This document shows positions 6,926 to 7,245 of a stretch of DNA of 9,461 bases, in pieces. A program made the translations under genes and the position numbers. The first letter of the stretch is position 1; every line of letters begins with the position of its first letter. Origin of the DNA: a virus (taxonomy: Duplodnaviria > Heunggongvirae > Uroviricota > Caudoviricetes). The DNA lies in IMG/VR virus record IMGVR_UViG_2737471850_000005; one strand, 5' to 3'. Below the pieces are notes generated by a model. It was given only the letters and a program-made list of their open reading frames with translations. It did not search any database and was not told where the DNA came from.

Positions 6926-6949
6926 AAACTAAAACCCGCCGCAGCGGGT
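6926..6949 (-). terminator. rho-independent terminator for minus-strand transcription just upstream of the tailspike start
   Basis: On the minus strand: ACCCGC-tgcg-GCGGGT (6-bp GC-rich stem, 4-nt loop) immediately followed by TTTTAGTTT; it ends about 12 nt before the tailspike SD. Confidence 0.6.
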
Positions 6950-7164
6950 TATATTGATGATTTGATTAAGCTACATCGCCCGGGTAGTTTGCGTTATCGT
7001 ATTGATAGAACGCTTCCCGGTACTCTTTGGCTGTTACCTGGCACGTGCCGTCAGACTGCGGGGCGATCTCTGAAATTAAGGCACTGTATCCCACTCTCGA
7101 TGATTCGCAGAAAATCAGGCGAGGCGATTCGATGGCTGGGTCATTAAGAACGATGCTACTGAAA

Positions 7165-7245
7165 TCACCCTGTTCGGGTAACCGGGCTCTGCGTTTTAAC
7201 AGGCTTCTGAAGCATGATTCGTTTATTGAGCTTCCCCGCCTGCAT
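7165..7245 (-). pseudogene. N-terminal remnant of a head-closure (head-tail joining) gene, truncated after ~26 codons
   Basis: ATG at 7245 with AGGGGG SD 5 nt upstream; encodes MQAGKLNKRIMLQKP..., resembling the characteristic N-termini of HK97-type head-closure proteins (M-x-A-G-x-L-x-x-R-I/V-x-x-Q), then hits a stop after 26 codons. Another frame is open from 7247 to 6966 without any start codon. Confidence 0.35.

Follow-up and report, generated by a model that had tools for sequence, protein, structure and literature searches.

Cryptic lambdoid prophages lose integrase function and early genes by deletion, keep moron or lysogenic-conversion genes, and persist as fixed elements undergoing neutral decay. 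The defective lambdoid prophages DLP12, Rac, Qin and e14 are located at a tRNA gene or another att site and have lost blocks of late genes. Phages that combine an HK97/HK022/mEp235-type head with an N15/phiKO2-like TipJ tail, such as vB_EcoS-733R5 and Klebsiella phage ST846-OXA48phi9.2, display the late gene order capsid, adaptor, small protein, head closure, tail genes, TipJ and tail fibre or spike, with a terminator between tipJ and the spike gene. In the serotype-converting phages of Shigella flexneri (SfII, SfV, SfX and Sf6) and Salmonella (P22 and BTP1), gtrABC and an O-acetyltransferase gene adjoin the tailspike gene in an att-proximal position. The gtr/oac module tends to survive longer than the remaining prophage in such phages. 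Helper-embedded PICIs integrate into prophage late genes (PMC10111431).

The DNA analyzed here is a stretch of 9,461 nt from the Caudoviricetes record IMGVR_UViG_2737471850_000005, referred to as the window, which was 100% identical to contig AAROEY010000009.1 of GCA_012072605.1. The element to which it belongs likewise lies at a tRNA gene and has lost late genes, shares its gene order and its tipJ-spike terminator with the phages of HK97-type head and TipJ tail, and carries its O-antigen genes next to the tailspike as the serotype-converting phages do. The site where its head genes meet the tailspike region is very probably a deletion scar in the decaying genome of a temperate phage integrated at serU of E. 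coli.

Gene content of the window and the host locus

The minus strand of the window represents the end of an HK97-type late operon (Table 1), and no tail genes were found in the window between the head-closure remnant and the tailspike gene. An exact-protein look-up detected the identical capsid protein in L002 and L003, two relatives with a full tail module. The 59-aa gene keeps its position in the intact relatives and in phage vB_EcoS-733R5. The UmuD-like (Peptidase_S24) gene at 1-336 encodes 111 aa, compared with 127 aa in an element of another E. coli locus (L042, see below), and its serine-protease part appears to be absent or truncated.

Table 1. Positions of the features identified in the window, with the matches or remarks on which each is based
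Feature	Position	Strand	Match or remark
Major capsid protein, HK97-type, 387 aa, intact	8047..9210	-	Pfam Phage_capsid
80-aa protein		-	between capsid and adaptor genes in the late-operon order
Head-tail adaptor Ad1, gp6-like connector, intact	7488..7820	-	Pfam Phage_connect_1, E=3e-14; PHROG 40
Conserved small late protein, 59 aa	7248..7427	-	PHROG 2612; adaptor/head-closure interval
Head-closure (Phage_HCP) remnant	7165..7245	-	23 authentic and 3 out-of-frame codons, TGA
Junction, very probably of a deletion	7177..7180	-	4-bp microhomology TACC, common to both parents
tipJ/gpJ-like tail-tip gene, 3' remnant	6966..7180	-	last 70 codons and stop, startless
Predicted intrinsic terminator, native	6926..6950	-	hairpin and T-tract; tipJ/tailspike interval
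Tailspike, 812 aa	4476..6914	-	Pfam Tail_spike_N and Peptidase_S74; C-terminal intramolecular chaperone domain
O-antigen acyltransferase (oac)	3444..4430	+	Pfam Acyl_transf_3, E=9e-35
O-antigen glucosylation cluster gtrA-gtrB-gtrC	678..3380	+	Pfam GtrA_DPMS_TM, Glycos_transf_2, Glucos_trans_II
attR-proximal genes: UmuD-like fragment (111 aa) and 79-aa protein	1..562	-	PHROG 3469, PHROG 3893
Recurrent deletion endpoints, most of them in GGT(N)ACC palindromes	7172..7186		tipJ and head-closure sites; in other loci: L002 12028, 12630 and 13849; L006 5655; L012 9733

The whole element is about 19.4 kb and lies between the tRNA-Ser(CGA) gene serU (mtfA/yeeJ side, attL) and yodB/zinT. Its chromosomal flank (yodB, zinT, msrQP, hiuH, hprRS) is 100% identical to E. 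coli genomes, and each end of the element carries an 81-nt repeat matching the 3' part of serU, as for att repeats. The genes encoding terminase, portal, protease, capsid and adaptor are intact. The distance from attL to the gene for the Q antiterminator is only 1.85 kb and holds a C-terminal integrase fragment (199-226 aa remain) and no called genes; therefore, the element has no functional integrase, repressor or replication module. Compared with the intact relatives, it lacks the lytic-essential genes for the tail, full head closure, integrase and repressor/replication, and by gene content it appears to be a defective (cryptic) E. coli prophage at serU. This is in agreement with the sequence-only reading, which had proposed a defective prophage without its own tail; tail genes elsewhere in the element, which would have spoken against that proposal, were searched for and none was found.

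Junction between the head-closure and tipJ remnants

The head-closure remnant begins with the ATG at 7245, with AGGGGG just upstream, and encodes 26 codons (MQAGKLNKRIMLQKPVKTQSPVTRTG) up to the TGA at 7167-7165. Residues 1-23 are identical to the intact 110-aa head-closure protein of L002 and L004, which matches Pfam Phage_HCP (E=5e-32) and the PHROG 'head closure Hc1'. The DNA homology to the intact gene stops at 7177, and beyond codon 23 the window is out of frame. Instead of the full PF05521 domain of about 105 residues, only residues 1-23 of 110 are left, and thus the ORF is a remnant and not a functional member of Phage_HCP. The earlier description of a gene with a strong SD that resembles head-closure genes and stops after 26 codons is thereby confirmed and given a source, and no intact head-closure gene was recovered.

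A second minus-strand frame stays open between 7247 and its TAA (6968-6966) and contains no ATG, GTG or TTG ahead of the GTG at 7094. Its last 70 codons (7178-6969) are about 60% identical to the C-termini of TipJ/GpJ-like proteins of about 1,020-1,030 aa from E. coli and Klebsiella siphophages (tblastn), and 100% identical to longer remnants in sister strains. In the sister variant T5 (L012) they run on into 228 codons of the J gene, and the PHROG match of this parent J region is 'tail protein / central tail fiber J'. The J proteins of about 1,022 aa are often labeled 'kinase' in GenBank, which is a mislabel; their neighbors (tape measure, DUF1833) and the database name 'host specificity factor TipJ family' show that they are tail-tip proteins. 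Members of the TipJ/GpJ family have about 1,000 aa, an FNIII-A_GpJ domain and a start codon, and what is left here is 70 startless codons that are presumably untranslated. The start-less frame had been taken for the orphaned 3' end of another gene, which proved right, with tipJ/gpJ as the source. Homologous J genes were full length in 21 of 21 species-representative genomes, where the contig allowed this to be seen, and the J truncation was absent there.

At the join, the parent head-closure gene reads ...CCCGGTTACCGGCG (longer view ...AGAGCCCGGTTACCGGCGCGG...), the parent tipJ reads ...GTCGGTACCCGAAC (longer view ...GAATTGTCGGTACCCGAACAGG...) and the window reads ...CCCGGTTACCCGAAC (longer view ...AGAGCCCGGTTACCCGAACAGG...). 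The parents have only TACC in common at the join (7180-7177), and no IS end, att site or longer repeat was detected at the junction. Known parents, few common bases and no mobile-element end are what characterizes a microhomology-mediated illegitimate deletion. Everything from head-closure codon 24 through TipJ codon -71 is absent from the window. L002 and L003 are intact relatives that match the window at 99.9% identity over the packaging and head module. Downstream of their 59-aa gene come the 110-aa gene, an HK97-gp10-like gene, Tail_completion_gp17, Phage_TTP_11, Phage_TAC_13, the tape measure gene, DUF1833 and a 1,029-aa protein with FNIII-A_GpJ. About 10 kb of tail genes are gone when measured on the L002 coordinates (12,034 to about 22,144), and in the intact Escherichia phage vB_EcoS-733R5, whose genes are arranged in the same order, about 9.6 kb separate the corresponding points. 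The figure of about 10 kb is approximate, since the TipJ C-terminus of L002 belongs to a different allele that is about 50% identical. This allele rules out L002 and L003 as the direct intact parent and makes them mosaic cousins only; a direct parent with this tipJ allele and a tail module was not found among the relatives.

The identical junction is present in at least three independent records (GCA_012072605.1, GCA_000819325.1 and SRR8095548), and the junction region was found in none of 5,426 complete E. coli genomes. On the plus strand, which is the non-coding strand, the junction sequence itself creates a weak hairpin with a T-rich run (7172-7187), rated terminator-like by a consensus scan. 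As a terminator this hairpin was rejected, being at chance level.

Between the tipJ stop and the tailspike gene lies another hairpin (AACCCGC-TGCG-GCGGGTT, 6933-6950) with a 7-bp GC-rich stem, followed by TTTAGTTT, the two together spanning 6950-6926. Its predicted dG is -15.3 kcal/mol (z = -2.8 against shuffles). The GC-rich hairpin, the U-tract and the conserved position are those of a predicted intrinsic (Rho-independent) terminator. A matching hairpin with variable loops was found between the J stop and the tailspike gene in more than 10 enterobacterial prophages with intact J; genera with both the hairpin and full-length J include Citrobacter, Buttiauxella, Scandinavium, Sodalis, Entomohabitans and others. 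The predicted terminator thus belongs to the normal tipJ-tailspike interval of the phage and not to the scar. The sequence-only reading had placed this terminator correctly, immediately ahead of the tailspike gene, and its assignment of the terminator to the breakpoint does not stand, given its presence in more than 10 prophages with intact J.

The tailspike ATG at 6914 is preceded by GAGG. Two features are conserved over many genera of enterobacteria, as seen in the window and in L017-L027: a hairpin of the form CCCGC-NNNN-GCGGG with a T-tract, and a tailspike that starts with MTTYNTGN; the rest of the tailspike is variable. The tipJ-tailspike boundary looks like a conserved exchange point for receptor-binding modules.

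Deletion variants at serU and recurrent breakpoints

Sister loci were identified from five query proteins, namely the tailspike, the acyltransferase, GtrB, the capsid protein and the 59-aa protein. Besides the junction type of the window (W, also in L006, L011, L013 and L050; head closure to tipJ codon -70), near-identical strains show no fewer than five further deletion variants at the locus. Type T5 (L005, L008, L012 and L014) has two deletions, from head closure to the tail chaperone and from the tape measure to tipJ codon -228, and T55 (L055) has one from the holin to the tail chaperone. Type T7 (L007, L009, L010 and L045) is joined from Rz1 to tipJ codon -70 and has no head genes. In T4 (L004) the deletion extends from the gp10-like gene to the acyltransferase, leaving oac truncated, and in T39, the commonest type (L039 and at least 10 others), from an HNH gene to the middle of the tailspike gene. 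The segments in common, including the chromosomal flanks, are 99.7-100% identical, and the differences are private SNPs. The series documents the decay of a single prophage, acquired recently, in hosts that are nearly clonal.

The order of the deletion events could not be derived from SNPs, all of which are private and give a star phylogeny. In W-type loci, the second holin gene has lost 6 nt in frame (91 instead of 93 aa; L011 at about 722, outside the window) and the 59-aa gene has a SNP (L006 11875, about 7336 in the window), both of them private to this type. The holin deletion is lacking in T7; therefore, T7 was not derived from W and the two are independent events.

The T5 loci still contain 4.2 kb of tail DNA, framed by the same flanks and with 99.8-100% identity. 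The tail remnants of T5 and T55, comprising the chaperone, the tape measure and 228 tipJ codons, are continuous with both the head side and the tailspike side of the window at about 100% identity. Tail DNA in this position indicates that the state of the window arose by internal deletion and not by joining two phages. Since T39 cuts the tailspike and T4 cuts the acyltransferase, neither gene is being preserved; the truncated tailspike is that of the commonest variant. In three loci (L040 8129-9337, L053 11874-13082 and L054 8264-9484), an insertion sequence either interrupts gtrC (DDE_Tnp_1) or lies immediately ahead of gtrA (ISL3 family), indicating that the O-antigen module itself is eroding in some strains.

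Two further groups of elements were observed. An element of about 11.8 kb at another E. coli locus (L042 6495-18289, also L047 and L057), from yciB/SRAP to a 4HBT gene, encodes an intact 393-aa integrase and early genes (Dam, TraR-like, DUF4406), followed directly by a 218-aa C-terminal remnant of a different J family. From about tailspike codon 60 its tailspike-oac-gtrCBA module is 99.9% identical to that of the window, and no head or tail genes were found in the L042 element. In a diverged lineage (L015 89-11805, and L016), the integrase is intact and is accompanied by Q, a lysis cassette and then an in-frame Rz1::TipJ' fusion ORF (106 aa, P0001) that joins at the same V-P-E-Q codons of tipJ; downstream are genes for a 792-aa tailspike with a GDSL-esterase-like domain and MBOAT-type acyltransferases. 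In T7, Rz1 is likewise fused in frame to TipJ'.

The ancestral late operon would have comprised terminase, portal, protease, capsid, adaptor, the 59-aa gene, head closure, about 10 tail genes, tipJ, the terminator and the tailspike gene, with a convergent O-antigen module (oac, gtrCBA) beyond the tailspike. A single illegitimate recombination via TACC would then have joined head-closure codon 23 to tipJ codon -70 and taken out about 10 kb, presumably through a break or slippage repaired by microhomology. This event would have eliminated the remainder of the head-closure gene, the gp10-like gene, the genes for tail completion, tail tube, chaperones G/GT and tape measure, the distal tail genes and most of tipJ. 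A two-step course through a T5 intermediate is the alternative. The T5 junction (CGGTTATCCGACCAGCGGG) matches the tipJ site (CGGT-ACCCGAACAGGGTG) at 15 of 19 positions, which implies that the window type could derive from a T5-like intermediate. A single event at the 4-bp microhomology is the best-supported route and the two-step route is possible. Transcription from the Q-dependent late promoter would run through the 26-codon ORF and the tipJ tail, which cannot be translated, and only then arrive at the native terminator and the tailspike gene. The peptide gene and the tipJ tail are a scar without function, and the intact state of the surviving head genes probably reflects nothing more than a recent deletion.

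At least seven junctions draw on a handful of endpoints. With the breakpoint marked by a slash, the tipJ site GTCGGTA/CCCGAAC was used three times, as the right endpoint in W, in T7 and in the L015/L016 lineage; in that lineage the J remnant has 86% identity, and the left endpoint is displaced forward in Rz1 by about 20 codons (60 nt). The head-closure site CCCGGTTA/CCGG was used twice, as the left endpoint of W and T5, and the chaperone site GTTTA/TCCGACC twice, as the right endpoint of T5 and T55. Four sites are GGT(N)ACC palindromes: those in head closure (CCCGGTTA/CCGG), the gp10-like gene (TTCGGTA/CCGAG), HNH (AACGGTCA/CCGAG) and tipJ (GTCGGTA/CCCGAA). Six of the seven junctions with known parents have one endpoint inside such a palindrome (consensus YCGG-T(N)A-CCGR), and every junction fits one register with the crossover in the common TA (TCA in T39). 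The junction common to T4 and T39 has the microhomology TACG and no such palindrome. GGT(N)ACC sites cover 0.6% of the composite ancestor. Taken nominally, the pattern has a probability of about 2e-11 when counted per event and of about 3e-7 when counted as 4 of 10 distinct endpoints, both for a motif defined post hoc. The HNH site was already on the motif list before its junction was seen. The reuse of endpoints suggests that the breakpoints are not random, and a plain account by random microhomology leaves this reuse unexplained.

It is conceivable, albeit doubtful, that the deletions were sequence-directed in a way that fits site-specific breaking and rejoining, either by a recombinase at pseudo-sites or by cleavage with a restriction-type nuclease and end joining thereafter. 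The serU anticodon stem has the same arms, CCGGT/ACCGG, and is presumed to be the core site of the phage's own integrase, and a C/A polymorphism in the att repeat would place the crossover to its left, in or near the anticodon stem-loop. Therefore, the integrase acting at secondary pseudo-sites is one candidate, as the four recurrent sites hold CGGT(N)ACCG arms that match this stem. However, their spacer measures 0-1 nt where an att site would have about 7, the sites on the partner side match poorly, and no remnant retains an untruncated int. A restriction-type nuclease with subsequent end joining is a possible source of the same deletions.

Cleavage by DNA gyrase or Topo IV was discarded, as the published determinants (-4G, -2A, -1T / +5A, +6T, +8C, and a quinolone bias for G at +1; PMC10117906, PMC6379681) do not fit CGGT(N)ACCG. 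Helper-embedded PICI att sites were likewise discarded, as none of five breakpoint sequences occurred in the att supplements of PMC10111431. Two candidate additional junctions, P0011 and P0012, were both contig-end truncations. When IMG/VR and JGI metagenomes were screened for novel junction partners of the tipJ, head-closure and chaperone sites, the yield was intact genes or nothing: the head-closure site was intact in five of five and the chaperone site in ten of ten IMG/VR phage contigs, and the chaperone site was also intact on the single matching JGI metagenome contig.

Alternative explanations and relation to known systems

The sequence-only reading regarded the junction as an illegitimate or modular breakpoint that joins a head module to a tailspike/gtr module. 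Illegitimate recombination was upheld by the analysis of the junction, and the joining of two modules was contradicted by T5 and T55, which have tail DNA between the same flanks. A join between modules of two phages would be plausible in a group of mosaic phages: L002 has a head module 99.9% identical to the window, yet a different lysis cassette, a tail module of 89.7% identity and a different TipJ C-terminus, and in L042 the same tailspike-oac-gtr module follows a different J family at another site. Nevertheless, the continuity of the T5/T55 tail remnants with both flanks places the tail genes once between them in one genome, which makes a two-phage origin very unlikely. That the junction is a frameshift or a chimeric contig might be suspected because the window comes from a draft assembly. 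The chance of such an artefact is negligible, as NCBI and Logan assemblies made from different samples agree on the junction at every base, about 10 kb and not a single base is missing, and a 4-bp overlap is far too short for a mis-join in a de Bruijn graph.

The element could also be read as a functional cf-PICI-like satellite that keeps packaging and capsid genes and a tailspike by design and borrows helper tails. Its intact terminase, portal, protease, capsid and adaptor genes and its missing tail genes are what such a satellite would show, and the small elements L015 and L042 also pair a J' remnant with a tailspike and O-antigen genes, together with an intact integrase. At serU, in contrast, int is truncated, AlpA, primase/replication and repressor genes are lacking, and only 1.85 kb separate attL from Q; no Phage_AlpA, primase or rep genes were found in L006, L048 and L009, so that the integrase, regulator and replication genes of a satellite are missing from these loci. 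The head-closure gene, which a capsid-forming satellite needs, is broken at codon 23, and the tipJ fragment is startless. Near-identical strains carry overlapping deletions, among them T7 without head genes and T39 with a truncated tailspike; the head is thus incomplete and the architecture not conserved. The element is also absent from the 5,426 complete E. coli genomes. The satellite-like character proposed earlier is not borne out by the truncated int, the missing immunity and replication module and the broken head closure, and we consider a functional satellite extremely improbable.

An internal deletion in a decaying prophage is thus preferred, and the feature is ordinary prophage decay, with the recurrent motif-associated breakpoints as its only unusual aspect. 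For annotation, the region contains two pseudogene fragments and a native terminator, and belongs to a defective prophage rather than a satellite. The locus also provides a natural series in which one prophage in a nearly clonal host occurs in at least six decay states, with every junction resolved to the base. If a specific enzyme does act at GGT(N)ACC/TA, this would offer a mechanism for module-by-module dismantling of prophages and for fast modular decay. It would also help to account for the frequent orphan survival of O-antigen-modifying modules and for the domestication of 'grounded' prophages.

The likeness to capsid-forming and helper-embedded PICIs is superficial, consisting of capsid and packaging genes without tail genes and of breakpoints in late genes, whereas the serU element carries no satellite hallmark genes. 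Compared with the serotype-converting phages, it differs in its serU site and, as predicted from its genes, in its siphoviral virion type with TipJ, and its module is eroding in some strains. Unlike DLP12, Rac, Qin and e14, the serU prophage still has a complete HK97-type packaging and head module, and it decays into at least six variants in nearly clonal strains, with endpoints at a few short motifs.
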